A stretch of 51,802 nt of DNA from Escherichia phage vB_EcoS_NBD2: sequence record NC_031050.1. One strand, given 5' to 3'. Position numbers and translations under genes: made by a program. The stretch's first letter is position 1. Every line of letters begins with the position of its first letter. Shown piece after piece: positions 1 to 51,802 of this stretch. Below the pieces are notes generated by a model. It worked only from the letters and a program-made list of their open reading frames with translations, searched no databases and was not told the origin of the DNA.

Positions 1-9
1 GGGTAACAG

Positions 10-38
10 TTGACAACAACCGCGCTACCAGGCACAAT
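10..38 (+). promoter_or_regulatory. sigma70-like promoter TTGACA-17-CACAAT
   Basis: Hexamers at 10-15 and 33-38, upstream of first + strand gene. Confidence 0.45.
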
Positions 39-69
39 GCAGCCATCCACAACCAAAGGAGAAATAACC

Positions 70-576
70 ATGTCAGAGAGAACGTTAGCAAATATCGTGC
101 GCCACATCGCAACCCAGGCGCTCGCCCATGAAGAGCAGGTGTTGGCCGTGTCATTGCCAGCCATCGTGCAAAACCTCGACCCAGACGGCGCGCCGATGCC
201 AGGCACCGAAGAAATGGATGCAGCCGTTGCCGCGCTCAAAAAGAAGATGACAAAATCATACATCACGATCACCATCAACCGCATGAAGGATGTGCAGGCC
301 GTCAATAAATCTGCCGTCGCCCGATTCTTCACGTGTGACGATCGCGGCGTGGCAATGCTGGAAGTCGGATTTAAGGAAGGCAACACGACACGCGAACGGG
401 GCGCAATCCAAACAGACCGCACGCAGTACAAGCGCGGATATCATGACGGGTTAGACAAGGCGATCGCATTCGTGCCAGATTTCGTGGATTACTCCGACGA
501 GGAAACACTCATCGCTCGCCGCCTCCTGGTGGAAATGCGCGCTCACCTGGCGACGCTCAAGGAAGGTGCAGAATGA
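70..576 (+). CDS. hypothetical early protein
   Basis: ORF 10..576 trimmed to ATG at 70 with RBS aaaggag upstream; the ATG at 10 sits inside the -35 hexamer of the upstream promoter. Confidence 0.55.
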   Translation: MSERTLANIVRHIATQALAHEEQVLAVSLPAIVQNLDPDGAPMPGTEEMDAAVAALKKKMTKSYITITINRMKDVQAVNKSAVARFFTCDDRGVAMLEVGFKEGNTTRERGAIQTDRTQYKRGYHDGLDKAIAFVPDFVDYSDEETLIARRLLVEMRAHLATLKEGAE

Positions 577-779
577 AAAAGCACAGAATCGTTTTAGTCG
601 ATACGGTAACGGCGCTTGGCGATCCGGTCAAGTGGTATGCTGCCCAGGTTCGGGTTGCATTCTTCTGGTGGGTTACGATTCATCACTTTTCACAATTGCG
701 TGATGCGCGTTACTGGTTACACCAGAGCGGGGCAACAAAAAGAATGCTGACGGAAAAAGTGTTAAAGGTAATCGAATAG
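573..779 (+). CDS. hypothetical protein
   Basis: 68-aa ORF, ATGA start/stop overlap with upstream gene. Confidence 0.45.
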   Translation: MKKHRIVLVDTVTALGDPVKWYAAQVRVAFFWWVTIHHFSQLRDARYWLHQSGATKRMLTEKVLKVIE

Positions 780-819
780 CACGAATTGTTAAACGTGCCC
801 GATCTGATTAGGGCATAAT
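777..819 (+). promoter_or_regulatory. motif promoter (TAGCACgaaTTGTTAAAC, 22 nt, CATAAT)
   Basis: Motif 777-794, -10-like 814-819. Confidence 0.55.
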
Positions 820-850
820 GCTTTCACACCAACGAAACGAGGCAACAAAC

Positions 851-1294
851 ATGCAGACTGCAAAACTCTTGGCAATCCTGAAACGCATTGATGACCTGAA
901 CGCACAGATCTTTTCTGGTAGCCTGGAAGGTGACGAACTGACGGCAATCACCAATCACCGCAATCAACTTGCATTGCAGTATATGAACGGTCTGGAAGAG
1001 GTAGAGTTAGTCAAGCCTGGTGAGCGTGTCGTTTCTGGCTTTGCTGCAACCGTCCTGGCAATCCACAAAGAATGCGGAATCCAGTTGCGCTATGCGGCAT
1101 TCATGGCTGATTCATGTGATTACACCATCGTTGGGCGAGGGGCTGAATTCATGGCATGGATTGCCAGCATCAAGGCGAAGTACAAAGAAGCGCATCCAGG
1201 TTGGATGTATGGCGCAGACACGATCGGCAATCAGCACCATTTCACAAGCTATATTGTGTCGGGCGCTTACATGGTCGATAGCACTAATTGCTAA
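851..1294 (+). CDS. hypothetical protein
   Basis: ORF 818..1294, start placed at ATG 851 after RBS aacgagg; preceded by motif promoter 777-819. Confidence 0.55.
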   Translation: MQTAKLLAILKRIDDLNAQIFSGSLEGDELTAITNHRNQLALQYMNGLEEVELVKPGERVVSGFAATVLAIHKECGIQLRYAAFMADSCDYTIVGRGAEFMAWIASIKAKYKEAHPGWMYGADTIGNQHHFTSYIVSGAYMVDSTNC

Positions 1295-1321
1295 AACAAC
1301 AATCAGGGGCTATGCAATAAT
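1279..1321 (+). promoter_or_regulatory. motif promoter (TAGCACtaaTTGCTAAAAC, 22 nt, AATAAT)
   Basis: Motif 1279-1297; -10-like 1316-1321 lies in the loop of hairpin GGGGCTAT/ATAGCCCC. Confidence 0.55.
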
Positions 1322-1350
1322 AGCCCCACACCAAACGAGAAGGAAACACC

Positions 1351-1590
1351 ATGAGCGTCACCATTACGCACACAATGAAAATGCGCGTCGAATCGATGCC
1401 ACTGGAAGCAAGAATCATCGGAGTTTATCAGGGTGATGATCTGGTTGATTTCGTGTTTAAGCCTAATCGCATCGAAGTACACGACGACATAATCACTTTC
1501 CTGGATGCGCACGGCGCACATCGTGGCGAAGGGTTCACGGCGGAGGTGAGCTTTAAGCGCGGAACAATCCTGAAAGTTGAGGTGAAGTGA
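1351..1590 (+). CDS. hypothetical protein
   Basis: 79-aa ORF with RBS gagaagga; preceded by motif promoter. Confidence 0.55.
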   Translation: MSVTITHTMKMRVESMPLEARIIGVYQGDDLVDFVFKPNRIEVHDDIITFLDAHGAHRGEGFTAEVSFKRGTILKVEVK

Positions 1591-1907
1591 TGAAACGATT
1601 TTCACTACTGGCACCAATCGCACTTCTTGCAGCGCTAACCATTGCATTAACCGGATGCGACAACTCAACCCGCGTGCCAGTTGAGCAGCGCGGAAAAGTG
1701 CAGGTTAATACGGCTGAATCAGGCCGCGTGCAGGTTCGCAAGATCAGTGAATTTCGCGACGATCTGGCTTACGATGATTATCGCGGAGTGTACATCATCA
1801 CGGACACCGAAACGGGGCAAGAGTTTATCGGCGTTAGCGGCGTTGGTATCAGTGCGATCGGGCAGCACAATTGCGGTAAAAATTGCTGGCGCAAAGACGA
1901 ACGATAG
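1587..1907 (+). CDS. putative lipoprotein
   Basis: N-terminal signal peptide followed by lipobox-like LTGC; start overlaps stop of upstream gene. Confidence 0.55.
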   Translation: MMKRFSLLAPIALLAALTIALTGCDNSTRVPVEQRGKVQVNTAESGRVQVRKISEFRDDLAYDDYRGVYIITDTETGQEFIGVSGVGISAIGQHNCGKNCWRKDER

Positions 1908-1947
1908 CACGAATTGCTAAAACTCATCATCGGGGCTATGCCATAAT
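1905..1947 (+). promoter_or_regulatory. motif promoter (TAGCACgaaTTGCTAAAAC, 22 nt, CATAAT)
   Basis: Motif 1905-1923, -10-like 1942-1947 within hairpin. Confidence 0.55.
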
Positions 1948-2023
1948 AGCCCCATACACAGCACGGGAGCACAGCGCGATGAATGGCGTCGAGCCTCCCA
2001 CACCAAACGAGAAGGAATAGGAA

Positions 2024-2557
2024 ATGATGTTAGAAATAAAGGCAAGCAAGGTTATCCCTGGGCAGATGATGGCAGTTGTTGGCGAAACCCGAATTGATAT
2101 TCCCGATTGGGTTTATAGCGTGGCGGTAGATGCAGATGGCGAATTGTGGGGCTTCTGCTCAATGGCGGAACCAATGCGCGATGGCGAAGTGTGGAACGAT
2201 CACACCAGCGCCGAACAATCACGCGTTGAGTTGCTGGGAGACTTCAAGGGCGGCGTTGTTGGCTGGGCTGACTCATTGACAGTTATCGATCGCGAGCCGA
2301 AGAAGAAGCCTAAAGCAGATCGCCGCGTGCTTCGTGGTCTGGTTCTGGATAGCATCACGCGCGACGTTGAGGCAGGCGAGTTGGGCGCACGCAATACAGC
2401 GGCAATCATTCGCGATCTGGATGTGGCGACGTTCAACGGCTACACAACGTTAAAGCTTGTGCAGGCATTCGCCCTGGCTGGCTATGATATCCGCAACACT
2501 CACACGATGAAGGCATTCGAAGCCATCGATCGCAAGGTTCAAGAGGCCTGGGCATGA
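2024..2557 (+). CDS. hypothetical protein
   Basis: 177-aa ORF, RBS gaaggaa, preceded by motif promoter. Confidence 0.55.
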   Translation: MMLEIKASKVIPGQMMAVVGETRIDIPDWVYSVAVDADGELWGFCSMAEPMRDGEVWNDHTSAEQSRVELLGDFKGGVVGWADSLTVIDREPKKKPKADRRVLRGLVLDSITRDVEAGELGARNTAAIIRDLDVATFNGYTTLKLVQAFALAGYDIRNTHTMKAFEAIDRKVQEAWA

Positions 2558-2658
2558 GCACGCTCGCACCCATTATCATCACAATCTGCGTGTGCCTCGC
2601 TATCGTCGTGATCTCAAGGCTCATCGTAACGGCTATCCGCATCAAGCGGGATGAATAG
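2554..2658 (+). CDS. small hydrophobic peptide (34 aa)
   Basis: ATG 2554 overlapping upstream stop; translation MSTLAPIIITICVCLAIVVISRLIVTAIRIKRDE is one predicted TM helix; below the ORF-track length cutoff. Confidence 0.35.
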   Translation: MSTLAPIIITICVCLAIVVISRLIVTAIRIKRDE

Positions 2659-2698
2659 CACGAAATGACAAAACGGCTGGCTCACTGATTGGTATACT
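2656..2698 (+). promoter_or_regulatory. motif promoter, degenerate (TAGCACgaaATGACAAAAC, 22 nt, TGgTATACT)
   Basis: Motif 2656-2674, extended -10 2690-2698. Confidence 0.5.
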
Positions 2699-2729
2699 TC
2701 TTTCCATACCAACACAGGAGCCAGTTACC

Positions 2730-2915
2730 ATGCAATACAAAACGATTTACACCCACTGCGGCAAGGCCTTTACAGCTAACGCTGACTCAATCGAATATCT
2801 GCCCTGGTTCGGCGTATGGAAGATGTGGAAAATCACATCAAGCGGATATGAAGAGTACTACCTCCGCAAGATGTATGTTGCCGAAGTCATTGAGCATGAC
2901 GAATTTTTCAACTAA
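2730..2915 (+). CDS. hypothetical protein
   Basis: 61-aa ORF, RBS aggag, preceded by motif promoter. Confidence 0.5.
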   Translation: MQYKTIYTHCGKAFTANADSIEYLPWFGVWKMWKITSSGYEEYYLRKMYVAEVIEHDEFFN

Positions 2916-3333: not shown

Positions 3334-3373
3334 CACTTTTTGTTAAAACGCCGAATCGGGGTTGCGCTATAGT
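3331..3373 (+). promoter_or_regulatory. motif promoter (TAGCACtttTTGTTAAAAC, 22 nt, TATAGT)
   Basis: Motif 3331-3349, -10 3368-3373. Confidence 0.55.
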
Positions 3374-3404
3374 AACCCCATCAACAACGAACGAGGAAAT
3401 GCAA

Positions 3405-5707: not shown

Positions 5708-6325
5708 ATGGCAACCATCATCATTTTGAACGCGCCACCGCGCGCGGGTAAAGACACGATCGCGAGCATTATCAATGAGCAATACGGCTTGCAGGTTGTG
5801 AGCTTTAAAACGCAGATGTTCAACATCGCTCGCGCCATCCTGGGCGGCGCTGATTTCGAAAACCCATTCATGCGGGTTTACAATACCGACGAGAAAGACA
5901 CGCGCAAGCTTGATTGCCTGGGAGGGATGACTTGCCGCGAGTTCATGATCTGGATTAGCGAAACCATCGTGAAACCGAAGTTCGGGAAAAAGCATTTCGG
6001 CTGGCTTATGGCTGACCTTCTCACCGAAATGGAAGCAGATCAGGATCTGACGATTTGCAGCGATGGCGGATTCCCTGACGAAGTGGAGGCGCTTATTGAT
6101 TGCGGTCACAAAGTCAAGCTGGTACGTATGCACCGTGAAGGCTTCGACTTCGGCAATGATAGCCGCGATTACATTAATCTTTCGCCGGAGTATCTCGCGA
6201 AGCCTGGCGTTGAGGTTATGGATCTTAAGTTGCAGCACGGCTCGCCGCAAGATGCAGCCGATACGATCGCCGCAATGTTCGTGCGCCCTCATCATGTCGA
6301 TTGGTCTGATGATATTCCCTGGTAA
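5708..6325 (+). CDS. deoxynucleoside monophosphate kinase-like P-loop kinase
   Basis: N-terminal P-loop NAPPRAGKDT resembling the T4 gene 1 dNMP kinase P-loop (SGKDT); 2 nt after the phosphatase stop. Confidence 0.55.
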   Translation: MATIIILNAPPRAGKDTIASIINEQYGLQVVSFKTQMFNIARAILGGADFENPFMRVYNTDEKDTRKLDCLGGMTCREFMIWISETIVKPKFGKKHFGWLMADLLTEMEADQDLTICSDGGFPDEVEALIDCGHKVKLVRMHREGFDFGNDSRDYINLSPEYLAKPGVEVMDLKLQHGSPQDAADTIAAMFVRPHHVDWSDDIPW

Positions 6326-6326
6326 A

Positions 6327-6369
6327 TAGCACTTTTTGTTAAACCCTCTTCGGAGGGTTTTGTTATAGT
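6327..6369 (+). promoter_or_regulatory. motif promoter overlapping a terminator hairpin (22 nt, TATAGT)
   Basis: Motif 6327-6344, hairpin CCCTC-ttcg-GAGGG 6344-6357, -10 6364-6369. Confidence 0.55.
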
Positions 6370-8218: not shown

Positions 8219-8258
8219 CACGAATTGCTAAAACTCCCCTGGGGTAAGCTGTTATAGT
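8216..8258 (+). promoter_or_regulatory. motif promoter (TAGCACgaaTTGCTAAAAC, 22 nt, TATAGT)
   Basis: Motif 8216-8234, -10 8253-8258. Confidence 0.55.
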
Positions 8259-8289
8259 TACCCCATCAAAACAAACCGGAGCAGCAAAA

Positions 8290-16017: not shown

Positions 16018-16045
16018 TTGACCGTTTAGCAAAAAGTGCTATTAT
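16018..16045 (+). promoter_or_regulatory. strong promoter for major capsid gene (TTGACC-16-TGcTATTAT); contains motif dyad in inverse orientation
   Basis: -35 16018-16023, TG 16037-16038, -10 16040-16045; TAGCA-aaaag-TGCTA at 16027-16041. Confidence 0.6.
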
Positions 16046-20517: not shown

Positions 20518-23217
20518 ATGACCGACCAATACGCAGGTTTGACCCTGGGCGTTGACGTTTCCCAGGTAGACAAGGCGGTTAAATCTCTGGACGCATTCGC
20601 AGAGGCGAACGACAGAGCCGCTAAGGGCGTTGAGAGCTTCGTTGATGAGGAGCAGGTTGCTCGACAGAAGGCCAAGGAGTTCGGCAACGAATTGAAGAGG
20701 CAGGCCAAAGAGTTTAAAAACGTTGAGGCCTCGATTGATCCCACCTTTGCCAAAATGCAGAAGTTGCGCGGCGCGGCGGAGCAATTAGACCAACTCTGGA
20801 AGGCGGGAGTTGTGCCAGATGAGAAATTCTTTATTCTTGGCGAAATCATCGAAAACCAGACCGTAGCACTCAATAAATCTCGCGCAGCGCTGACGGAAGA
20901 GGGTAAGGCAGCAGCAGAGAACGCCAGGAAGAAGGCTACGGCTCAACGCGAAGCTGACAGCTTCATCAAGCAACTGACGGCGCAGGCCAACGCAGCAACG
21001 ATGACCAAAAACGAACTTCTCGAACTTCGAGCGGCGGAGTTGGGAGTTACGGCGCAGGCGGCACCATTAATCGCATCGCTCAACAAGCAAACAAGTGCGC
21101 TGAATCTTTCCGGCCTTTCGGCTGGTCAGTACTCCCAGGCGATGCGAATGCTTCCGGCGCAGATCACGGACGTTGCAACATCACTTGCAGGCGGTATGCC
21201 GATTTGGTTAGTGGCAATCCAGCAGGGCGGGCAGATTAAGGACTCATTCGGCGGCGTGGCGAACACGTTCAAAGTTTTGTTGTCTTTCCTTAATCCGGTT
21301 AACGTTGGGATTGCGGCTACGGTTGGCGCGCTGGGAACGCTGATTTATGCGGTGGTCAAGGCCAAAAGCGAGATCACAGCGGCGCAAAAGGAAGTAACTG
21401 AAACGCTGGGAATGACAGGTGATTACGCAGATAAGCTGGCGTTAAACCTCCGCAACATTTCACAGGCCGCAGGTGAGACAACCGCCGAAACAGCAAAGAC
21501 TTTCATCACCACGAAAGACAGCGCAGAGCAGGCGATTGAAAAGCTTATTGATGTTGGATTTAGTTACGACGAGGCGCGCCGGAAGGTTGAAACTTACAAA
21601 GGATCGTCTAACTTCACCAACCTTAACGCCGACATTGAAGAGCACCGCTTACAGGTGTTAGGCCTCAAAGACGCATGGAGTGACGCGGCGGAAGAGGTGA
21701 AAAACTACTACACTGGAGCGAATGAGGGCAAGCAAAGTGTTGCTTTGGGTGGTGCGATTGATCCTATTATGCGCATTATCGAAAACGCAAAGAACTTGCA
21801 GAAGGAAACGAACCAGGCTCGAATTGAAGGTAACAAGATTGTTAACGACACAATCAATTCAATTAACAAAGAGTACCTGGCATCGAACAAGATCGCGGCG
21901 GCGGAAAAGGCGATTGTAGACGCGAAGAAGCAGGCTAAAATTATTTCACAATCCGGCAATGATGTTGCCATTAAGCAGGCCAACGAGCTTGTCAAGATTC
22001 GCGAAAAAGAATTGAAGCAGGCGCAGGATGCGGAAGCAAAACGCAACAAGCCAAAGAAAACATCAACTGGCGCGATCACAAAATCGCCAACCGAACAGCT
22101 TGATCGTGAGCTTTACACTCTGAAAGCGCAACTTGTGGTTATGCAGCAACACGCGAACATCAACGACAAGATCAGCAACCAGAGAAGGGCGCTATGGGCT
22201 ACAGAGGCACAAATTACCGTGCTTAAAGATACCCAGAGCAAACGAGCGCTAACCAACGATGAAAAGGCGTTGTTAGCGAGTCAAGAGAAAGTGCTTGAAC
22301 TTGCAAAACAGAAAGCGGAGTTAGGCGATCAGATTTTGCAGCAAGAGCAGTTAAACGCGCTGAATGACCAATCGTTGAAATTCGTCATGCAAATGAACGA
22401 AAGCACGAAGGCGCTGAACGACTCGCGAGCGATGGGCAACCGTGAAGCAGAAAGGGCGGCAGAGCGTGCGAAAATCACCTCTGATTACCTTAAAAACGGC
22501 GGCGGCGCTGACGATGAGAATCTCAAGAAGATGATTCAAGCCCAGGATGAATACTACGCCGCAGAAGATGCCAAGCGTGCTGATTGGTTAGCTGGGGCGC
22601 AAAACGCCTTTGCCAACTACGGTGACGCGGCAACGGATATGTATTCAAACGTAGGCAGCATCGCAACCAATGCTCTTAACGGAATGTCAGATATGATGAC
22701 CGATTTCCTTATGACAGGGCAGGCCAACTTTGCAGACTTCGCGAAGTCAATCATTAGCCAGATCATAAAGATGATCACGCAGATGGTTATTTTCAACAGC
22801 ATTTCCGGCATGATGGGCGGCGGAGGCGGTTTCTCATTCGCTAAAGGATCATACGCAACGGGCGGCTACACTGGCGACGGCGGCAAGTATGCGCCAGCGG
22901 GCGTGGTTCACCGTGGCGAGTTCGTTATGACGAAGGAGGCAACGAAGAGAATCGGTGTTGATAATCTTTACCGAATGATGCGCGGCTATGCTTCTGGAGG
23001 TCTGGTTGGTGGTTCTGGTTCAGGCGTTTCGGGCACCAATCAGAGCAGCGGGCTTTTATTGAACATCGGCAGCATTCCGGTTAACATCAATAACGGAAGC
23101 GATCCGGCGGGAATGGAGCAAGGGATCAGGATGATTGTTACGCAGATGATGACGGAAGCTTGCGCGCAGGGTGGCGAAATCAATCGCTTTGTAAATGCTA
23201 AAATGGGGAACGGTTAA
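20518..23217 (+). CDS. tail tape measure protein
   Basis: 899 aa, largely coiled-coil-like, Gly-rich C-terminal segment; sits between chaperone pair and minor tail genes. Confidence 0.8.
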   Translation: MTDQYAGLTLGVDVSQVDKAVKSLDAFAEANDRAAKGVESFVDEEQVARQKAKEFGNELKRQAKEFKNVEASIDPTFAKMQKLRGAAEQLDQLWKAGVVPDEKFFILGEIIENQTVALNKSRAALTEEGKAAAENARKKATAQREADSFIKQLTAQANAATMTKNELLELRAAELGVTAQAAPLIASLNKQTSALNLSGLSAGQYSQAMRMLPAQITDVATSLAGGMPIWLVAIQQGGQIKDSFGGVANTFKVLLSFLNPVNVGIAATVGALGTLIYAVVKAKSEITAAQKEVTETLGMTGDYADKLALNLRNISQAAGETTAETAKTFITTKDSAEQAIEKLIDVGFSYDEARRKVETYKGSSNFTNLNADIEEHRLQVLGLKDAWSDAAEEVKNYYTGANEGKQSVALGGAIDPIMRIIENAKNLQKETNQARIEGNKIVNDTINSINKEYLASNKIAAAEKAIVDAKKQAKIISQSGNDVAIKQANELVKIREKELKQAQDAEAKRNKPKKTSTGAITKSPTEQLDRELYTLKAQLVVMQQHANINDKISNQRRALWATEAQITVLKDTQSKRALTNDEKALLASQEKVLELAKQKAELGDQILQQEQLNALNDQSLKFVMQMNESTKALNDSRAMGNREAERAAERAKITSDYLKNGGGADDENLKKMIQAQDEYYAAEDAKRADWLAGAQNAFANYGDAATDMYSNVGSIATNALNGMSDMMTDFLMTGQANFADFAKSIISQIIKMITQMVIFNSISGMMGGGGGFSFAKGSYATGGYTGDGGKYAPAGVVHRGEFVMTKEATKRIGVDNLYRMMRGYASGGLVGGSGSGVSGTNQSSGLLLNIGSIPVNINNGSDPAGMEQGIRMIVTQMMTEACAQGGEINRFVNAKMGNG

Positions 23218-23219
23218 TC

Positions 23220-23567
23220 ATGGCACTTGATGTTTTTAAATGGTGCGTGCAGGTGCAAAATGGCGGTGGCGTGATGAGCGTCACCAACAATGATCGTGAG
23301 GTGCAATTCGGTAATGGTTTTCGCCAGGTTGCATCTTCCGGCTTTAACACCGAGCGGCGCGAATATCAGATCACATACTTCGGCAAGGATTGGCAAGCGG
23401 TGCGTAAGTTTCTTCGCGATCACAGGCTAAAGCCTTTCGCGTTTACGCCTCCTAGCGACACGATCGGCATCTTCCTATTGAAGCCGGACACGTTGAGCGC
23501 AACGCCGATCGCAAACGGTCAACTTGAAATCAAATGCGCTATTGTGGAACAGTTCACAGCAGCGTAA
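23220..23567 (+). CDS. minor tail protein (lambda M-like)
   Basis: 115-aa ORF directly after tape measure; order M-L-K-I-J. Confidence 0.55.
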   Translation: MALDVFKWCVQVQNGGGVMSVTNNDREVQFGNGFRQVASSGFNTERREYQITYFGKDWQAVRKFLRDHRLKPFAFTPPSDTIGIFLLKPDTLSATPIANGQLEIKCAIVEQFTAA

Positions 23568-23586
23568 AATAAAAGCCTCCTTATGG
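23563..23586 (+). terminator. intrinsic terminator
   Basis: AGCCTCC-ttat-GGGGGCT plus T6. Confidence 0.55.
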
Positions 23587-23612
23587 GGGCTTTTTTATTG
23601 GAGGTCAAAATT

Positions 23613-24374
23613 ATGGCTATGTCTCCCGCATTTGTTAACTGCCTGCAATCACTATACCCAGGCGAGATACTAACGCTAGTCGAAGTTGATGGCACCAAAT
23701 TTGGCGCACAGGTATACCGATTCCACGGCGAAAACATACAGTTCACGCCGGAAGAAATTCTTGCAGCAACGCAGGGCGGAACGCTGCAACCTAAAACGAT
23801 CATGTTCCAGGGTAACGAATACGGCGCGCGCCCGTTCGGTATTTCTGGGATCAGCTTCAATGGCAACGGCAAGGCCGGAAAGCCGCAACTGACGTTATCT
23901 AATATTGATAGCCGAGTTTCCGCACTAATCCGATCCTACAACGGCATGATGCAAGCGAAGGTCAATATCTGGATTACCCAGCGCGATCTATTGGGTGAAG
24001 ATGGAAATGTTTCACCTGGCGACTTCCGAAAGCTGACGTATTACATTGAGCGCCCCAACTTTGTTGATCCGAGCCTTGCCCGCTTTGACTTAACATCGCC
24101 TTACGATATGGATGGGATTATGATTCCTCCACGCATCACGCAAAGCGTTTGTTTCTGGGCGCAGCGCGGCTGGTATCGTTCCGGCAGAGGTTGCGACTAC
24201 AACGGCAATAAGTATTTCGACAAAGACAATAACCCTGTAAGCGATCCATCGCAGGACGTTTGCGCGGGCACCGTTACCGCCTGCAAGCTTCGAAATGGCG
24301 GCAAGAATGGCACTGAGTTTGAGTTGCCTTTCGGCGGCTGTGCGGTTGCTTCACTGATGAGGAAAAACCAATGA
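23613..24374 (+). CDS. minor tail protein (lambda L-like)
   Basis: ORF trimmed to ATG 23613 after RBS ggaggt; C-terminal Cys cluster (CDYNG...C...C...C) as in lambda gpL iron-sulfur region. Confidence 0.55.
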   Translation: MAMSPAFVNCLQSLYPGEILTLVEVDGTKFGAQVYRFHGENIQFTPEEILAATQGGTLQPKTIMFQGNEYGARPFGISGISFNGNGKAGKPQLTLSNIDSRVSALIRSYNGMMQAKVNIWITQRDLLGEDGNVSPGDFRKLTYYIERPNFVDPSLARFDLTSPYDMDGIMIPPRITQSVCFWAQRGWYRSGRGCDYNGNKYFDKDNNPVSDPSQDVCAGTVTACKLRNGGKNGTEFELPFGGCAVASLMRKNQ

Positions 24375-25093
24375 TTCACCCTAAAATCAAGATGGCTATC
24401 TTTGAGCACGCAAAAGAAGAATACCCCCGAGAGTGTTGCGGGGTTGTCACCCAGAAAGGCCGCGTGCAGAAGTATTGGCGAGTCGATAACGTGAGCAAAG
24501 ACCCAGAAAATCATTTTCAGATGGACGCAGTGCAGTATGCCTGCATTGAGGATGACGCGGAGTTAACCACGATCGCAATCGTTCACAGTCATTGCGGCGA
24601 CGGTGCAACCACGCTCCCCAGCGCGCATGACACATGCATCATGAATGAAATGCAAGTTCCCTGGGTTATTGTTAGTTTGCCGGAAGGTGATTTGCGGATT
24701 TGCGAGCCGAAAGATATCCCCCTGATCGGTCGCCCGTGGTCGCTGGGTTCGTATGATTGCTGGGGGCTGGTGATGGCCTGGCACAAAGAGCACGGCGTTG
24801 AATTGAACGACTTCCGCAAGCCTTACGAATGGTGGAAGCCGGAGCACGGCGAAAACCTTTACTTTGACAACTACATCAAAGAGGGCTTCATTGAAACTGG
24901 CAAGGCACCAGAGGCAGGCGATATGGTGATCTTTCAGCTACAGGCCGAAGTTTGGAATCATGCAGGCATTTACGTTGGCGACAACCAAATCCTTCATCAC
25001 GCCTTCGGTAAGCTGTCAAAGACGGATATTTATTCCGGCTGGTATCAAGAGCACACAAAAATGATTTGCCGACACAAGGATCTGAAACTATGA
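24371..25093 (+). CDS. tail assembly protein (lambda K-like, MPN/JAB plus NlpC/P60-like)
   Basis: HSHCGDG (JAB-like H-x-H) and a later Cys/His region (DCWGLV...WHKEHG); position. Confidence 0.6.
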   Translation: MIHPKIKMAIFEHAKEEYPRECCGVVTQKGRVQKYWRVDNVSKDPENHFQMDAVQYACIEDDAELTTIAIVHSHCGDGATTLPSAHDTCIMNEMQVPWVIVSLPEGDLRICEPKDIPLIGRPWSLGSYDCWGLVMAWHKEHGVELNDFRKPYEWWKPEHGENLYFDNYIKEGFIETGKAPEAGDMVIFQLQAEVWNHAGIYVGDNQILHHAFGKLSKTDIYSGWYQEHTKMICRHKDLKL

Positions 25094-25689
25094 ACATTGT
25101 AAAAACAATCAAGCTTTCTGGCTCCCTGGGGAAACGCTTCGGCGTTTTCCACAAGTTAGCCGTTGACTCATACCCCGAAGCGATTCGGGCGCTATCCTCC
25201 CAAGTTGAAGGATTCAAAGAGTTTATGACGAGCGAGATCGGATCACGCATGAACTTTGCAATTTTCGTTGATGGCAAAAACATTGGCGAACACGATGAGC
25301 AAAACTTTGCTTGCGCCCGTGAGGTTCGGATTATTCCAGTGCCAACGGGATCGAAGAATGGCGGGCTTTTTCAAATTGTTGTTGGTGCGGTGATGATGGT
25401 TGCAGCATTCTACACTGGCGGCGCATCGCTGGCGCTAATGGGAACGTTTGCAACGTCTGCCTTCATGATGGGCGGCGCGATGGTTCTGGGTGGTGTTATG
25501 CAGATGATTTCACCGCAGCAGGGCGGCGCAAAGATGGAAATCCAGAGCAGCAAAAATAGGCCTTCTTATGCCTTCGGCGGCGCGGTGAATACCACGGCGG
25601 CTGGAAATCCGATCCCGTTACCATATGGGAAGCGAACGGTTGGCGGCGCTGTATTTTCGGCGGCGAGTATGGCAGAAGATATGGTGTAA
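25090..25689 (+). CDS. tail assembly protein (lambda I-like)
   Basis: ATGA overlap with K-like gene; hydrophobic Gly/Ala-rich C-terminal half. Confidence 0.55.
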   Translation: MNIVKTIKLSGSLGKRFGVFHKLAVDSYPEAIRALSSQVEGFKEFMTSEIGSRMNFAIFVDGKNIGEHDEQNFACAREVRIIPVPTGSKNGGLFQIVVGAVMMVAAFYTGGASLALMGTFATSAFMMGGAMVLGGVMQMISPQQGGAKMEIQSSKNRPSYAFGGAVNTTAAGNPIPLPYGKRTVGGAVFSAASMAEDMV

Positions 25690-25695
25690 TTCAAA

Positions 25696-25718
25696 GCCCG
25701 CCTTGCGCGGGTTTTTTT
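25696..25718 (+). terminator. intrinsic terminator before J-like gene
   Basis: CCCGC-cttg-GCGGG plus T7. Confidence 0.6.
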
Positions 25719-25766
25719 ACGCCTGTATAATGAAACTTCACTAAATAGCACGAAAGGTTAAGCACT

Positions 25767-28700
25767 ATGAAAAATAACATGATAGTGACAGGCCGGAAGG
25801 GTGGAAGCAGCAAGCCGAAAACCCCAAAGGAAATGGAAGATAATTTAATCTCCATTAACAAAATCAAGGTATTGCTAGCCGTTTCAGATGGCGAGTGCGA
25901 TCCAGATTTCTCGCTGAAAGATCTGTATTTGAATGACGTTCCGGTGATCGCGCCATCCGGCGAAGAGAACTACAAGGGAATCATTGCAGAGTTTCGCCCA
26001 GGTACGCAGACGCAGGATTACATTAAGGGCTTCACCGACACCGCCAGCGAAATTACAGTTTCGCGAGTGATTAAGGCCGATAACCCTTACATCATCGCCG
26101 TTACCAATAAAACGCTTTCGGCTATCAGAATCAAGATCCTTGCCCCGCGCATGGTATACACCGAATCCGATGGCGATATGGTTGGCACCAAAGTTGAATA
26201 CGCGGTTGATATGGCGATTGATGGCGCAACTTATCAGCAGGTGTTTAAAGACACGATCGACGGAAAAACAATGTCGGGTTACGACAGAAGCAAGCGCGTA
26301 GACCTGCCAGCTTTCAACGATCAAGTGTTGCTGCGAGTTCGCCGCATTACGGCTGATTCAACGGATGCGCGCCGCGTTGATGAAATTCAGGTTCAGTCTT
26401 ACGCCGAAGTGATTGATGCCAAGTTCCGCTATCCCCTGACGGGTTTAGTTTACGTTGAGTTTGATTCTGAAATGTTCCCGCAGATGCCGAACATTTCCGT
26501 TAAAAAGAAATGGAAACTTGTTAACGTTCCGAGCAACTACAACCCTGTTTTGCGCGAATACGTTGGCACATGGGATGGCGTATTCAAAAAGGCGTGGACG
26601 AATAACCCAGCGTGGGTGCTGTACGATTTGATCACCAATCAGCGCTACGGACTCGATCAAAGAGAGTTAGGCATCGCGGTTGATAAGTGGAGCCTTTACG
26701 ACGCAGGCCGATATTGTGATCAGATGGTTCCAGACGGAAAGGGCGGAACAGAGCCGCGCTATCTTTGTGATGTGGTTATTCAGTCGCAGATTGAAGCGTA
26801 TAACCTCGTGCGCGATATTTGCTCAATCTTCCGAGGTATGAGCTTTTGGAACGGTGAAAGCCTTTCCATCGTGATTGACAGGCCGCGCGAAGCGTCTTAC
26901 ATCTTCACGAATGACAACGTGGTTAACGGTTCATTCTCCTACACTTTCGCCAGTGAAAAGAGCATGTACACCACTTGCAACGTGACGTTTGACGATGAAC
27001 AAAACATGTATCAACAGGACGTTGAAGGCGTTTTTGATCTGGAAGCCTCCGTGCGATTCGGGCACAACCCGACGAGCATCACGGCGATCGGATGCACCCG
27101 CCGAAGCGAAGCAAACCGCCGAGGGCGCTGGATTCTGAAAACGAACTTGCGCAGCACAACGGTTAACTTTGCAACTGGTCTGGAGGGGATGATTCCGATG
27201 ATTGGCGACGTGATCGCAATTGAGGACAACCACTGGAGCAGCGGCAACAAGCTTTCTTTATCCGGTCGAGCGATGGAAGTTAGCGGCCTGCAGGTGTTTA
27301 CTCACTTCCGAGTTGATGCGCGCCCAGGTGATTTCATCATCGTAAACAAGCCTGATGGTAATCCGGTTCGCCGCACGATTTCGAACGTATCGGCAGACGG
27401 CAAAACGATTATGTTGAACGTTGGTTTCGGGTTTGATGTTAAGCCGAACGCAGTTTTCGCCATTGACCGCACAGACGTTACTTTGCAGCAGTACGTTGTT
27501 ACGCAGATCAGCAAGGGCGATGGAAGCGATGAGTTTTGCTATTCAATCACGGCGGTTGAGTACGACCCGAACAAATACGACGAAATCGACTACGGCGTAA
27601 ATATTGATGACCGACCGACAAGCATCGTTGATCCCGACAACATGCAGCCGCCTAAAAACATTCGCGTGTCGTCTTACTCGCGAGTTGTCCAGGGCATGAG
27701 TGTTGAAACGATGGTTATCGGCTGGGATAAGGCACCGTATTCGAGCACTTATGATGTGCAATGGCGCAAGGATAATGGCAACTGGAACAACGTTCCACGA
27801 ACCGCAAACAGTGAAGTTGAGATCGAAGGAATTTACTCCGGCAACTATCACGTGCGCGTGCGGTCAATCTCAAGCGGCGATAACATGTCTCCGTGGTCTG
27901 CGGTTGTATCGGTTGGCTTGACGGGCAAAGTTGGTGAGCCAGCAACACCAATTAACCTGACGGCTACGGATAACGAAGTGTTTGGGATTCGCGTTAAGTG
28001 GGGAATGCCTACTGGATCAGAGGACACGGCTTATATTGAGTTGCACCAATCGCCTGACGGCACGGCGCAGAATGCAAGCCTGTTAACTATGATTCCTTAC
28101 CCGCAGTATGAATACTGGCACTCAATACTTCCGGCTGGCTTCGTTGATTGGTATCGAATCCGCAGTGTTGACAGGATCGGGAATGTTTCGCAATGGACAA
28201 AGTTTGTGCGCGGCATGGCCTCTGATGACGTTGATCAGATCATGGACGTAATCAAGATTGACATTGAAAATTCCGAAGGGTTCAAGGAGCTTGCAGAAAG
28301 CACTATCGACAGCGCAAACAAGATTCGTGAGCAGGCGCAAACTGATATTCAGAACGCACTGGCTAACGATTACAATCTGATCTGGACTCGCAAGCAGAAC
28401 GGCAACCGCAAGGCCGAATACGGCAAGGCAGTTGAGCTTATCGCTACAGAAACAGAGGCGCGAGTTGCAGCAATCGAAGAGCTTAGGGCGAGCATTGGCG
28501 ACGATATCCAGGGGCAGATCATCACGCTACGCGAGGCGATCGCAACCGAGGAAGAAGCGCGAGTGAAAGCGGTTCAACAGCTTGATGTGAAATTCACAAA
28601 CGGCCTGGCAAGTGCAAACGCTAACATCGGCAGGCTTGATGAGGCGGTTGTTAACGAGCAGCAGGCGCGGGCGCAGGCGATCACCTCGCTTGATACGAAA

Positions 28701-30777: not shown

Positions 30778-31179
30778 GGTGAATCCTCCATTCGTTTGAT
30801 TAAGTCGAAATCATACACCAGGGCGCAGGAAGAAGCAAAAATAACAGAGCGCCAGTTGTTCTATTTGTTATCGCTTGTTTCAGATTTGCGCCGGACAGTG
30901 TTTTGGCTACTTTTTGCACAGACTCACCCAGTGAAATAATACAATAATATCTATATATAATAAGGGTTTAGTAATAATCATCATTATTATATTACTCTGT
31001 TTGTTATACCTGTTATCGTTGTTTCACTATCTTTCCGTGTATCTGCAAAAATATTACTTGAGTGTTTTGTGTGGGTATTGTGGCAGATGCAAACACACAT
31101 ACCCCCCGCAGAAGGTGAAACATATTGAACAAATAGAACAGCGTTGATATTCAAGCATTTTTCTTGTTGCACGATAGCT

Positions 31180-31216
31180 ATAACAAGAAATAACACTTAT
31201 AACAGAATAAATAACA
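31180..31216. repeat. four direct ATAACA repeats at about 10-bp spacing
   Basis: ATAACA at 31180, 31190, 31199, 31211. Confidence 0.6.
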
Positions 31217-31244
31217 TTGACGAATCAAACCAATCGCGTATACT
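31217..31244 (+). promoter_or_regulatory. sigma70-like promoter TTGACG-16-TATACT for recombination operon
   Basis: Hexamers 31217-31222 and 31239-31244. Confidence 0.5.
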
Positions 31245-31276
31245 CCACCACATCAACCACAAGCGAGGATTTACAG

Positions 31277-36027: not shown

Positions 36028-36963
36028 TCACTCCGCAGAGTCAATAAGATCCTGCGCGTTAAATAGTTGCCGCCGCATCCCTGTTTTGAAGTCCGATCCG
36101 TTCGGCACGATAACTTTCAACTCCCGATCATCTGCCATGTAAAGCGTTTGCAGGTCATCAGCAAGGCACGCAACGCGCAATTCCCGCTCTCCCTTGTAAC
36201 GATACGCCACGATCTCAAGGTTGCTTGCATCAGTACAAACCCAGACTTCCTGATTGGTTGCGAAGTTCACCCGCTCGCCATCAGCCCAATCATTCACCAG
36301 GTAGATCGCGCCCTCACTCTCTCCGACTTTTATCACCGCTCCCCGCGTGTAATCCTTTGCAAGAAACGATCGGCTTCCATCCTCGAAGGCAAACATTATG
36401 TTGCACATTTCATCATCAAGGCCGTCATCATGCACCATATGGCACGGCAACGCGTGGATAAACTCATCAGACCCATCAGGACGCGATTTAACTCCTACGC
36501 TGTACGATTCGCCGTATAAACCTTCAAAGACCGTTAGAGGCGTGCTTGAGCGCAATTCTGTGCGGCTCATTACTTCAATGCAGGCCTCGTGATCAATCTG
36601 TTTCCCAAACGTGTAGCCGTTGTCTCTGGTTGCCCGCTTATTTGCCTTAACGCGATACTCTTGCGGAACCTTACCCAGAAAGCGCCCCAGGATGTTAATC
36701 ACTTCACTGTACGGCTCGCCAGTTAAGCGCATCATCCAGCCAATGCCCTTATCCGCTCCGCAACTGTTACAGTAAGCGCCGCCGTCGCCAGGCTCTTCAA
36801 GTTTATCAGTCCAGCGGAATCGGTCTTTACCGCCGCATGACGGGCAACTCTGGTGTTTTTTGTTGAACACGATTGATGGCACGCCGCAAACAGACTGCAA
36901 AGCCTCACGCCAAAGGCCTTTCATGTACGGCAATACTTCTTCTTTCTGAAACATTTCATTCAT
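36028..36963 (-). CDS. DNA primase (zinc-ribbon plus Toprim-like)
   Basis: N-terminal CPSCGGKDRF...CNSCG zinc ribbon followed by an acidic-residue-rich domain. Confidence 0.6.
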   Translation of the reverse strand: MNEMFQKEEVLPYMKGLWREALQSVCGVPSIVFNKKHQSCPSCGGKDRFRWTDKLEEPGDGGAYCNSCGADKGIGWMMRLTGEPYSEVINILGRFLGKVPQEYRVKANKRATRDNGYTFGKQIDHEACIEVMSRTELRSSTPLTVFEGLYGESYSVGVKSRPDGSDEFIHALPCHMVHDDGLDDEMCNIMFAFEDGSRSFLAKDYTRGAVIKVGESEGAIYLVNDWADGERVNFATNQEVWVCTDASNLEIVAYRYKGERELRVACLADDLQTLYMADDRELKVIVPNGSDFKTGMRRQLFNAQDLIDSAE

Positions 36964-37017: not shown

Positions 37018-37494
37018 TTATTCTTTAGCTTTTAGTGCTGCCTCACGCTCGCGCTTAATCCGTTTCCATGATGGTTGTTCCGGCTTGTGGGCTAACTCAT
37101 CCTCACGAACCACACGCATCATTTCACGCTTTTTGCATCGCACTGTTAATGGCTTGCCGTTGCCGTCGAAGGTGAGATCTGGTCGGCACCATGTAGCGCG
37201 AAAGCCCTTAGCCCCATTTCGCTTATATGCGTTGTGCGCCTTCTGCGCCCCGCGCGCGGAAATCATGCCGTTTTTAATCCAGATGGTGAGCAGTGAGTTT
37301 GAGATCTTCAACTCACGGCAAACGTTGGCCTTCGAGCCGTAAAACTCGATAAGCATTTCAAGGCGGGCACGCAATCCGGCCTTTACTTCATCTTTCAGAA
37401 CGTAGTAGCCTGTAGGCCGCTTGCGCTTCTTCTTGTCTGCGCCGCGCTGCGTTCCGTTGTTCCCGTTAATGGCTCGCTTGTCAACTTCAATCAT
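37018..37494 (-). CDS. HTH DNA-binding protein, putative transcriptional regulator
   Basis: Predicted helix-turn-helix around ANVCRELKISNSLLTIWIKNG; basic N- and C-termini. Confidence 0.45.
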   Translation of the reverse strand: MIEVDKRAINGNNGTQRGADKKKRKRPTGYYVLKDEVKAGLRARLEMLIEFYGSKANVCRELKISNSLLTIWIKNGMISARGAQKAHNAYKRNGAKGFRATWCRPDLTFDGNGKPLTVRCKKREMMRVVREDELAHKPEQPSWKRIKREREAALKAKE

Positions 37495-49577: not shown

Positions 49578-49856
49578 TTACGCGGTTTTCTTTGCGATCT
49601 TCCAAGCTTCTTTAAACGCTGGTACGTCGTCGATCTCAATCCAAAAGCCAGAACTCATGCCCTCTTCGTACAGCGGGCAAAGGTCGCAGTATGAGTGCCA
49701 GGTTTTTTCTTCGCCGCCGATTGAAAAGCCAGTGCTCATTGCGCAAAGTGCATCTTCAACACGTTCCAGGCGCTCTGCGTCGTTGTCGTGAATTACGAAG
49801 TTCCATTTGCCGTTATACTCGCTACCCAGATTGATTGATTCGCGTACCAGTTTCAT
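49578..49856 (-). CDS. hypothetical protein
   Basis: ORF 49578..49991 trimmed to ATG at 49856; motif promoter upstream. Confidence 0.45.
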   Translation of the reverse strand: MKLVRESINLGSEYNGKWNFVIHDNDAERLERVEDALCAMSTGFSIGGEEKTWHSYCDLCPLYEEGMSSGFWIEIDDVPAFKEAWKIAKKTA

Positions 49857-49893
49857 TTTGTTGCCCTTTTGTGTGCTTCGTTTCGATGGAGTG

Positions 49894-50670: not shown

Positions 50671-50927
50671 AATTCCACCGTTAGAAATTGAACTGCCTTT
50701 TCGATGCACTCACCCTGCGAGCCGTAGAACACAGAGAAACCACGCTGGCAGATTGTCCAGGTGCGCGATCCCTTTGCGGTCTGCTTAATCTCAATGTGAT
50801 TGTAAGGATTGCGACGCACGCACTTGAACGCCCCGACCTTCTCACCCTTGCGCTTCGTACTGTATTTGTCCGTAACGACAATCCCGCTATCCGTTGCCAT
50901 GTCGATTGCTTGCTGAATGGTAATCAT
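50667..50927 (-). CDS. hypothetical protein
   Basis: ORF trimmed to ATG at 50927. Confidence 0.4.
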   Translation of the reverse strand: MITIQQAIDMATDSGIVVTDKYSTKRKGEKVGAFKCVRRNPYNHIEIKQTAKGSRTWTICQRGFSVFYGSQGECIEKAVQFLTVEL

Positions 50928-50931
50928 GATC

Positions 50932-51120
50932 TCACCCTCTGCGCCAGATAGAGGCCTTCGCCCCAAATTCAACAACTTTCAATCGCTGCTCAACTCGCGG
51001 AGTCATCTTGTAAGGCCTCCAGTTGAAGTCCGTTTGAAGAGAGAACCATGACCCGTTAGCGGTCTGGATGAATTGCCCATCTTCGCTAGCGTGACGTGTA
51101 CCAGTGATTTCTTTACGCAT
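50932..51120 (-). CDS. hypothetical protein
   Basis: ORF trimmed to ATG at 51120; first gene of rightward-end - strand operon; motif promoter upstream. Confidence 0.4.
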   Translation of the reverse strand: MRKEITGTRHASEDGQFIQTANGSWFSLQTDFNWRPYKMTPRVEQRLKVVEFGAKASIWRRG

Positions 51121-51156
51121 TTTGTGTGCCTCAGTCTGTTTCGTTTCGATGAAATG

Positions 51157-51201
51157 ATAGTAACCCATCTGCGCTGATCGGTTTTAGCAAAAAGTGCTAT
51201 T
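51157..51201 (-). promoter_or_regulatory. motif promoter on - strand for the right-end early operon
   Basis: Reverse complement of 51181-51201 is AATAGCACtttTTGCTAAAAC. Confidence 0.45.
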
Positions 51202-51217
51202 TATTCGATTGCCCTCC

Positions 51218-51275
51218 ATTATTCCAATTATTCCAATTATTCCGAATATTCCATTCCACCAGAATAATTATTCCA
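51218..51275. repeat. tandem 9-bp ATTATTCCA-like repeats
   Basis: Three consecutive near-perfect units plus degenerate copies. Confidence 0.7.
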
Positions 51276-51301
51276 GATCTCGTTACAGATCAGATCCGAT
51301 C
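51276..51301. other. cluster of four GATC (Dam) sites within 26 bp
   Basis: GATC at 51276, 51288, 51293, 51298, followed by TGAT/GATG-rich tract 51300-51380. Confidence 0.6.
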
Positions 51302-51802
51302 GTGATGATTCGATGCCGCTCCTTTCGTGATTAGATTTGATGAGTTTTGATTGTGATGTGATGAATGATGATGATTGATGACACTAGACCGATTGGTCTA
51401 ATCATTTTTTCGCACCGCACTTTTTGCGCTTGTTATTGTTGTTGTCGTGTGTTTCAATTTCACGCCCTCCGTGGAATCCGAAACGGAATAGTTGTTGATT
51501 AACAAAAATAACACTATACCCTTTTATAGTAAGTAATTAATATATATAGGTTTTTTATATTATATAAATATTGTTGTTATAGATTGTTCTATATGTTTCA
51601 CCATTCACGGGAGATATGTATACATTTTCCGAAAGGAATGGGCATATGATATTGCGCTTCCATTTGGACGGCGTGACGTAGGTATACATATACCCCTCCG
51701 CAAATAGCGGAACAAGGGCAACAGCCGATAACATTCGTCGATAACAAGCGGTGCGCCTGCGCTCGCCTCGCAAAAAGTGTTATAAGGCCGATTATTAACA
51801 AC

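Follow-up and report, generated by a model that had tools for sequence, protein, structure and literature searches.

A conserved intergenic control region of the T1-like phage NBD2, best read as a packaging start site between divergent early promoters

The right end of the 51,802-nucleotide sequence of Escherichia phage vB_EcoS_NBD2 (the whole stretch analysed here, referred to as the window) is the left and central part of a single divergent intergenic region of about 750 bp, made up of positions 51121-51802 joined to 1-69. We consider this a conserved family control region, and our best reading of it, to which we assign a probability of roughly two in three, is that it would perform two jobs. 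A leftward promoter, PL, and a rightward promoter, PR, would drive the two early operons, while a packaging start site (pac) would serve as the place where the terminase makes its first cut on concatemeric DNA before rightward headful packaging. The cut would fall inside or at the edge of a C-poor, GAT-rich tract at about 51300-51385, with a 9-mer array to the left and a palindrome to the right of the tract acting as flanking protein-binding sites. Earlier publications already describe headful packaging in T1-like phages, the placement of their pac in this untranslated region and a 21-nt repeat. T1-like phages frequently turn up as laboratory contaminants, act as generalised transducers and are considered for phage therapy, yet no definition of their pac site at sequence level exists; our analysis supplies an anatomy open to direct testing.

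NBD2 is a T1-like phage (Drexlerviridae, Vilniusvirus), and positions 51142-51802 match the Klebsiella phages KLB19 and HazelMika, both of the genus Vilniusvirus, at 96-98% identity. In these two relatives the homologous region is found approximately 41 kb inside the record and runs directly into the homologue of the first NBD2 gene. Since KLB19 and HazelMika carry both NBD2 ends joined in mid-record, the ends of the window are contiguous, as the sequence-only reading had considered. The 51802/1 junction is not a physical genome end and lies some 400 bp to the right of the predicted cut. On the left, the region is bounded by the first gene of the leftward operon (50932-51120, minus strand), which has its likely start at ATG 51120, a ribosome-binding site GAGG at 51132-51129 and a frame that is open up to 51168; on the right, it is bounded by the first rightward gene, which starts at ATG 70 and encodes a DUF7174 protein. 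Position 51142 marks a mosaic boundary, to the left of which KLB19 and HazelMika differ in the first leftward gene.

To describe the region across the family, we made a syntenic comparison of ten lineages (NBD2, LF82-10, YP10S2, Phc, T1, TLS, MSK, IME542, BEK2 and P818). The region was found between the leftward early operon and a DUF7174-type first rightward gene, with a length of about 600-900 bp in the family. All ten lineages share one order of elements: the leftward gene, a -10 hexamer with the 21-nt family repeat, a lineage-specific array of short repeats, a C-poor tract, an AT block, further short repeats and the rightward promoter. Depending on the lineage the C-poor tract is G/T-rich or purine-rich, and the AT block that follows it is very AT-rich. 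A sensitive DNA search with the region matched 375 phage records, nearly all of them through its left ~110 bp. Searching IMG/VR for relatives of the DUF7174 protein returned none, and an Rfam scan of 50800-51802 gave only a sub-threshold snoRNA match. Two genomes in the comparison had features of their own. Enterobacter phage Phc has arrays of about nine CGGAGGATT-type repeats in place of the middle of the region, and its rightward promoter is of the marbox type described below. At the end of the YP10S2 record (21657-26515, opposite strand) portal, protease and major capsid genes occur a second time in a lambda-like version, which is odd for a T1-like genome and could reflect a chimeric assembly or an inserted element.

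The placement of pac is supported by the termini of relatives. The T1 record opens inside the homologous tract and annotates a repeat_region at 1..2800, a terminal repeat of 2.8 kb counted from position 1, and the TLS record likewise opens inside the homologous region. For TLS, pac was mapped with a submolar HindIII fragment, at a distance of about 5882 bp from the site, and the final start base was picked only by a weak 6-nt likeness to the P22 pac (PMC11447400); the first HindIII site in the TLS record is at 5876. The start bases of T1 and TLS are set at a resolution of roughly +/-100 bp. For MSK, the forward-strand PhageTerm peak at 36,862 falls in the homologous region just past the purine tract, and the UDF157lw record, which was re-organised to its PhageTerm start, begins 7 alignment columns from the MSK peak. 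In addition, the SU57 paper located the pac of T1-like phages in an untranslated region homologous to that of NBD2. Packaging thus starts within the homologous region in four relatives (T1, TLS, MSK and UDF157lw), and in none of them near terS. With the 12-mer GATTAGATTTGA, which is common to NBD2 and TLS, as an anchor, the TLS start projects to about 51302 of NBD2 and the MSK and UDF157lw PhageTerm positions project to about 51385, where the tract ends on the right. Because the termini of these relatives lie in the homologous region, we predict that the first cut in NBD2 is made between about 51300 and 51385 and that packaging proceeds rightward. The comparison with T1, TLS, MSK and UDF157lw therefore lends support to the sequence-only suggestion of a pac or terminal region at this place. 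The NBD2 small terminase subunit, TerS, matches PF16677 (GP3_package) and is P22 gp3-like.

The tract that would serve as the pac cleavage zone occupies 51302-51384 on the plus strand and contains GATTAGATTTGA at 51329-51340. It had been described from the letters as rich in TGAT and GATG, and counting agreed: between 51276 and 51385 there are 17 GAT against 2.5 expected and 11 TGAT against 0.8 expected. C is scarce, with only 4 in the 70 nt of 51327-51396. In most of the ten genomes the C-poor tract is a compositional outlier and is among the most C-depleted stretches. To the left of the tract lies the array of five ATTATTCCA-type units (51218-51275, plus strand), four of which stand in tandem at 51218-51253 and one at 51267-51275. 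TRF confirmed the tandem 9-mers of the sequence-only reading, reporting 4.0 copies of period 9 with the consensus ATTATTCCA at 51218-51253, to which the separate fifth copy is added. This array is probably a protein-binding array. At the equivalent position LF82-10, YP10S2, Phc and T1 carry TATTCC/GGAATA arrays, and other lineages carry different repeats; the type of repeat showed no co-variation with TerS identity across lineages, and a search of E. coli genomes with the 9-mer array gave no match.

PL lies on the minus strand at 51157-51201, just outside the coordinates given in the sequence-only reading, and its transcript is predicted to start near 51150. It consists of the 21-nt family repeat with a perfect marbox, GCACTTTTTGCTAAA (51197 to 51183), a 20-nt gap that holds one GATC (51176-51179), and the -10 hexamer TACTAT (51162 to 51157), without a -35 element, and it is conserved in all ten lineages compared. 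PR is a canonical sigma-70 promoter, TTGACA-17-CACAAT (10-38, plus strand), which is read across the end junction and precedes the ribosome-binding site AAGGAG and ATG 70 of the DUF7174 gene (70-576). The proposed continuation of the region into a promoter at position 10 was upheld, and this promoter was scored on the 98%-identical KLB19 junction. Back-to-back with PR and pointing leftward into the intergenic region, positions 51791-51802 plus 1-16 contain a promoter-like sequence on the minus strand, TTGTCA-16-AATAAT (10 of 12), after which a degenerate version of the family repeat occupies 51770-51780. A degenerate half of the family repeat, GCACTTTTTGC, is also present at 51417-51427 on the plus strand and points rightward.

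With PL and PR bracketing the region, we weighed whether it could be devoted to transcriptional control, so that the array, the GATC sites and the palindrome regulate PL and PR and packaging starts elsewhere, for instance near terS at 10 kb, since many headful phages place pac in or near that gene. The palindrome does have the geometry of an operator within a promoter spacer, and one GATC is located in the PL spacer. However, the GATC cluster described below sits 80-120 bp upstream of the PL start and thus outside the core promoter, no role in a promoter is apparent for the C-poor tract, and the four independent terminus placements in relatives are all within the region and none is near terS. 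We regard an exclusively transcriptional role as improbable, and favour a region that contains both the early promoters and pac.

The element in PL is one of many. By the published definition of the marbox, gcannwwntgnnaaa (PMC12052159), the window holds 21 perfect 15-mers, PL's included, against 1.1 expected. They are located on the plus strand at 779, 1281, 1907, 2658, 3333, 4333, 5004, 6329, 7183, 8218, 35959, 37508, 40077 and 41108, and on the minus strand at 16039, 29804, 43559, 47531, 49332, 49934 and 51197. In 17 of the 21 (PL and 16 others) a strong, often TGn-extended -10 hexamer follows exactly 20 nt downstream, and in these 17 promoters the start codon is about 72 nt from the start of the marbox, with an orientation that is always that of the downstream gene. 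The marbox is in forward orientation, overlaps the -35 position and is centred near -40, which is the geometry of class II promoters. In E. coli micF, a structurally characterised class II promoter (PMC8811837), we found the same 20-nt spacing between marbox and -10 as in PL, and the mar marbox was verified in the E. coli K-12 sequence. All ten Drexlerviridae genomes contain perfect marboxes, at 11-22 per genome. Copies of the 21-nt repeat had been described in TLS, T1, Rtp and Rogue1, and as late as 2024 the repeat was still given without a known function (PMC11447400). Judged by its sequence and spacing, the family repeat is a class II promoter element of the MarA/SoxS/Rob type.

A binder encoded by the phage itself was considered for the marboxes and dropped, as no MarA homologue was detectable by tblastn in the ten phage genomes. 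This absence points to host proteins as the activators, most likely Rob/MarA/SoxS, or RamA when the host is Klebsiella. A conserved regulator of the phage, encoded at 37018-37494, gave no sequence match in Pfam or PDB; a single-sequence model of it reached a pLDDT of just 44 and was unusable, and the predicted helices suggest a single HTH motif. Several of the marbox promoters carry additional structure. At about 1304-1325, 1930-1951, 3356-3377 and 8241-8265 an inverted repeat spans the -10 region, and its arms vary between copies while their complementarity is kept (GGGGCTAT/ATAGCCCC, GGGGTT/AACCCC and GGGGTAA/TTACCCC). Other marbox promoters have a terminator-like hairpin between marbox and -10, as at 6346-6365.

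At the right edge of the tract, the promoter-like sequence ATGACA-16-AATCAT (51378-51405, plus strand) has as its spacer the palindrome TAGACCGATTGGTCTA, which has 6-bp arms around a non-symmetric 4-bp centre. The near-palindrome of the sequence-only reading is thus real, but it had been placed at 51386-51401 and actually occupies 51385-51400. As a promoter the surrounding sequence scores 9 of 12, and the count of such matches in the region is no higher than in shuffled sequence. The palindrome itself is the 16-bp TAGACC-N4-GGTCTA of NemR operators, exact at 51385-51400, an identity that the sequence-only reading had not recognised. In E. coli K-12 the corresponding sequence, TAGACCGACTGGTCTA, starts 30 nt and ends 14 nt before the nemR start codon and differs from the phage site at one central base. 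The exact phage 16-mer was found at 120 or more loci in bacterial genomes. A NemR-like TetR gene was present in 71 of 125 loci screened (120 bacterial and 5 viral contigs), starting within 100 bp of the 16-mer in about 48 of them. In at least 20 Enterobacterales, among them K. pneumoniae, Raoultella, Kluyvera and Leclercia, the 16-mer lies 14-31 nt from the start of a NemR orthologue of 72-82% identity. In Tlsvirus genomes two NemR-type operators overlap immediately next to the PL repeat (TLS 49791-49820), the second of them varying symmetrically in both arms (TAGACCGTTTGGTCTA and TATACCGTTTGGTATA). Neither the rest of the window nor the control regions of the remaining lineages contained another copy of the 16-mer, and a search of IMG/VR with the E. 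coli-type NemR box gave only five unrelated contigs.

The name "NemR box" reportedly goes back to Umezawa et al. 2008, and we take the autoregulated nemRA-gloA operon to be the host system to which the operator belongs. NemR is a repressor of nemA and gloA that responds to electrophiles and bleach (PMC8693949). We looked for a phage protein specific to NBD2 and TLS as binder of the palindrome and found none, and we therefore considered host NemR. The palindrome is an exact copy of a NemR-type operator, and host NemR is the likely binder by virtue of this identity. NemR would bind in the spacer of a weak rightward promoter, where it could repress that promoter beside pac, act architecturally at pac or be titrated by replicating phage DNA.

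The palindrome is also followed by a T-run (51405-51410), and we asked whether the two could form an intrinsic terminator of a short plus-strand transcript. A terminator scan does return a 6-bp stem, a 4-nt loop and ATCATTTTTT, but with 3 GC pairs this is a weak stem, and shuffled sequences yield about as many matches of this kind (0.6 expected). Folding of 51300-51415 was no better than that of shuffled sequence (z = 0.11), the same 16-mer is found in Tlsvirus genomes without the T-run, and in bacteria it is the operator directly upstream of nemR. A terminator is very unlikely, and an operator remains our reading of the palindrome. A structured RNA spanning the GAT tract and the palindrome was likewise dropped, as the folding resembled that of shuffled sequence.

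Between the array and the tract lie four GATC (Dam) sites, AGATCT, AGATCA, AGATCC and CGATCG, with starts at 51276, 51288, 51293 and 51298. They had been singled out from the letters as four sites in 26 bp (51276-51301), and they proved to be the densest GATC cluster in the window, with four sites in 30 bp being reached by only 1 of 200 dinucleotide shuffles. The overall GATC density of the region is not raised (5 sites against about 5 expected), so that the clustering alone is unusual. The window does encode its own Dam methylase, as the sequence-only reading had stated: the gene at 40148-40876 matches PF05869 with E 8.6e-59. Among the ten whole genomes compared, seven have a Dam homologue, and in these GATC occurs at 1.0-1.7x the mononucleotide expectation. 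In five of the seven (NBD2, TLS, P818, LF82-10 and YP10S2) the densest GATC cluster of the genome falls within this region of about 700 bp, which is 1.4% of the genome; of the two exceptions, T1 has a pair plus one site and Phc has no cluster. In all three genomes that lack Dam (MSK, IME542 and BEK2), GATC is found at 0.3-0.4 of expectation and there is no cluster. GATC was described in the TLS paper as most concentrated in the helicase gene (PMC11447400). By our own count, 49856-49883, which adjoins pac, is the sole place in TLS with three GATC within 30 bp.

The position of the cluster relative to the tract is not uniform. It lies to the left in NBD2 and TLS, and to the right, at the mapped cut, in P818, LF82-10, YP10S2 and T1. 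The triple GATC of P818 sits in the exact columns of the MSK and UDF157lw PhageTerm termini, and in LF82-10, YP10S2 and T1 GATC directly follows the purine tract. The earlier idea that these sites could be regulated by methylation draws support from this comparison across genomes, in which a GATC cluster goes with carriage of Dam, and the pattern suggests Dam-gated packaging as in P1. Through the four sites, methylation by Dam would control whether the DNA is recognised or cut, restricting packaging to fully methylated DNA. Any role of the cluster would be regulatory rather than essential, because the relatives without Dam package their DNA without any GATC cluster. The association would also offer a reason for T1-like phages to carry a Dam methylase.

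To the right of the palindrome, the 100 bp with the highest AT content in the genome (51495-51594, GC 0.16) form a candidate DNA-unwinding or bending element, and an equivalent AT block was seen in all lineages compared. It is followed by an inverted repeat, GGGAGATATGTATAC / GTATACATATACCCC (51609-51696), which has 58 bp between its arms and is partly conserved in LF82-10, and by two direct copies of CGATAACA 13 bp apart (51726-51746, plus strand), at a position where other genera have lineage-specific short repeats. The AT-rich segment had been claimed to share sequence words with a control region at 31 kb. The AT-richness is confirmed and a shared 11-mer and 12-mer do exist, but the sharing does not exceed that of random 1-kb segments (p about 0.09). 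The 31-kb region (30934-31260; GC 0.21 over 100 bp) is a second AT-rich divergent control region, lying between the tail genes and the recombination genes. It is the second AT-richest stretch of the genome and resembles the right half of the end region in composition, not significantly in words.

We know of no replication origin in T1-like phages, and the region could in principle be one, with the 9-mers as iterons, the GATC sites under Dam/SeqA control like those of oriC or P1 oriR, and the AT block as the site of unwinding. The TLS paper found no origin (PMC11447400). Consistent with an origin, the AT-richest 100 bp of the genome are flanked by lineage-specific short direct repeats, an arrangement conserved in all lineages, and the GC skew switches sign where the window ends meet. 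However, divergent transcription explains the switch of sign equally well, the 31-kb region is likewise AT-rich and divergent, and no initiator gene is adjacent. The only DnaA-box-like site is single and has one mismatch; there are no long iterons, the repeats being 8-9 bp, and the short 9-mers are about 220 bp from the AT block. The physical evidence from relatives, moreover, all concerns termini and not replication. We consider it unlikely that the region as a whole is an origin. An origin confined to the AT-rich right half would be compatible with pac lying to its left, and the AT block with its adjoining short repeats could be an origin or a bent promoter region. For the region as a whole, pac with divergent early promoters remains the preferred reading.

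More tentatively, and with less than even confidence, the region of about 750 bp can be viewed as a hub by which a virulent phage reads three host systems, through PL and about 20 further marbox promoters responding to Rob/MarA/SoxS, the NemR operator, and a Dam-dependent first cut. If so, host Rob/MarA/SoxS (RamA in Klebsiella) would stand in for a -35 element, a phage promoter or packaging site would respond to electrophile stress or NemR would be titrated as genomes multiply, and in the Dam-dependent cut the phage would have arrived at the P1 mechanism by convergence, using an unrelated terminase. The links to NemR and MarA/SoxS/Rob could explain a dependence of infection on host physiology and, if they hold, might be used to control or engineer T1-like phages. 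The literature searched contained no earlier publication that recognised the repeat as a marbox, described a NemR operator in a T1-like phage, or associated GATC clusters with pac in Dam-encoding lineages.

Compared with the systems from which these elements are known, the NBD2 region is closest to the pac regions of T1 and TLS. It shares with them the synteny, from a leftward operon of small genes to a DUF7174-type first rightward gene, and the order of PL repeat, repeat array, GATC sites, GAT-rich tract, AT block and PR. The repeat arrays differ, consisting of ATTATTCCA in NBD2, two NemR operators in TLS and TTGCA/TGCAA plus TATTCC in T1, as do the GATC sites, of which NBD2 has four, TLS three and T1 two plus one. 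The NemR operator is found to the right of the tract in NBD2 and to the left of it in TLS. Relative to its host counterpart, which has the context TTGCAT-[operator]-TACAGT, the phage copy has the same geometry, ATGACA-[operator]-AATCAT. Unlike the host operator, however, it is a non-coding phage site beside pac, with no nemR nearby and with promoter hexamers that are not homologous. The marbox promoters differ from host class II promoters in that 21 near-identical copies occur in one 52-kb genome, and in that the conserved repeat (ATAGCAC...TAAAAC) is longer than the host consensus.

Finally, NBD2 resembles P1 in having GATC sites clustered at a spacing of about one turn or half a turn beside the cleavage zone, together with a Dam methylase of its own, and its pac may work like that of P1. 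In P1, 4+3 TGATCA/G hexamers stand on both sides of the cut and of an IHF site, inside pacA, whereas NBD2 has a single one-sided cluster of other hexamers at an intergenic site. Searches found no TGATCA/G hexamer in the NBD2 cluster and no match to the IHF core WATCAANNNNTTR in the region; TLS, unlike NBD2, does have the P1-type TGATCG and TGATCA. The terminases are also unrelated, being of the PacA/PacB type in P1 and P22 gp3-like in the TerS of NBD2. With one cluster, no TGATCA/G hexamers, no IHF core and a P22 gp3-like TerS, the NBD2 pac is therefore not a member of the P1 pac family, even though the two may share a mode of action.
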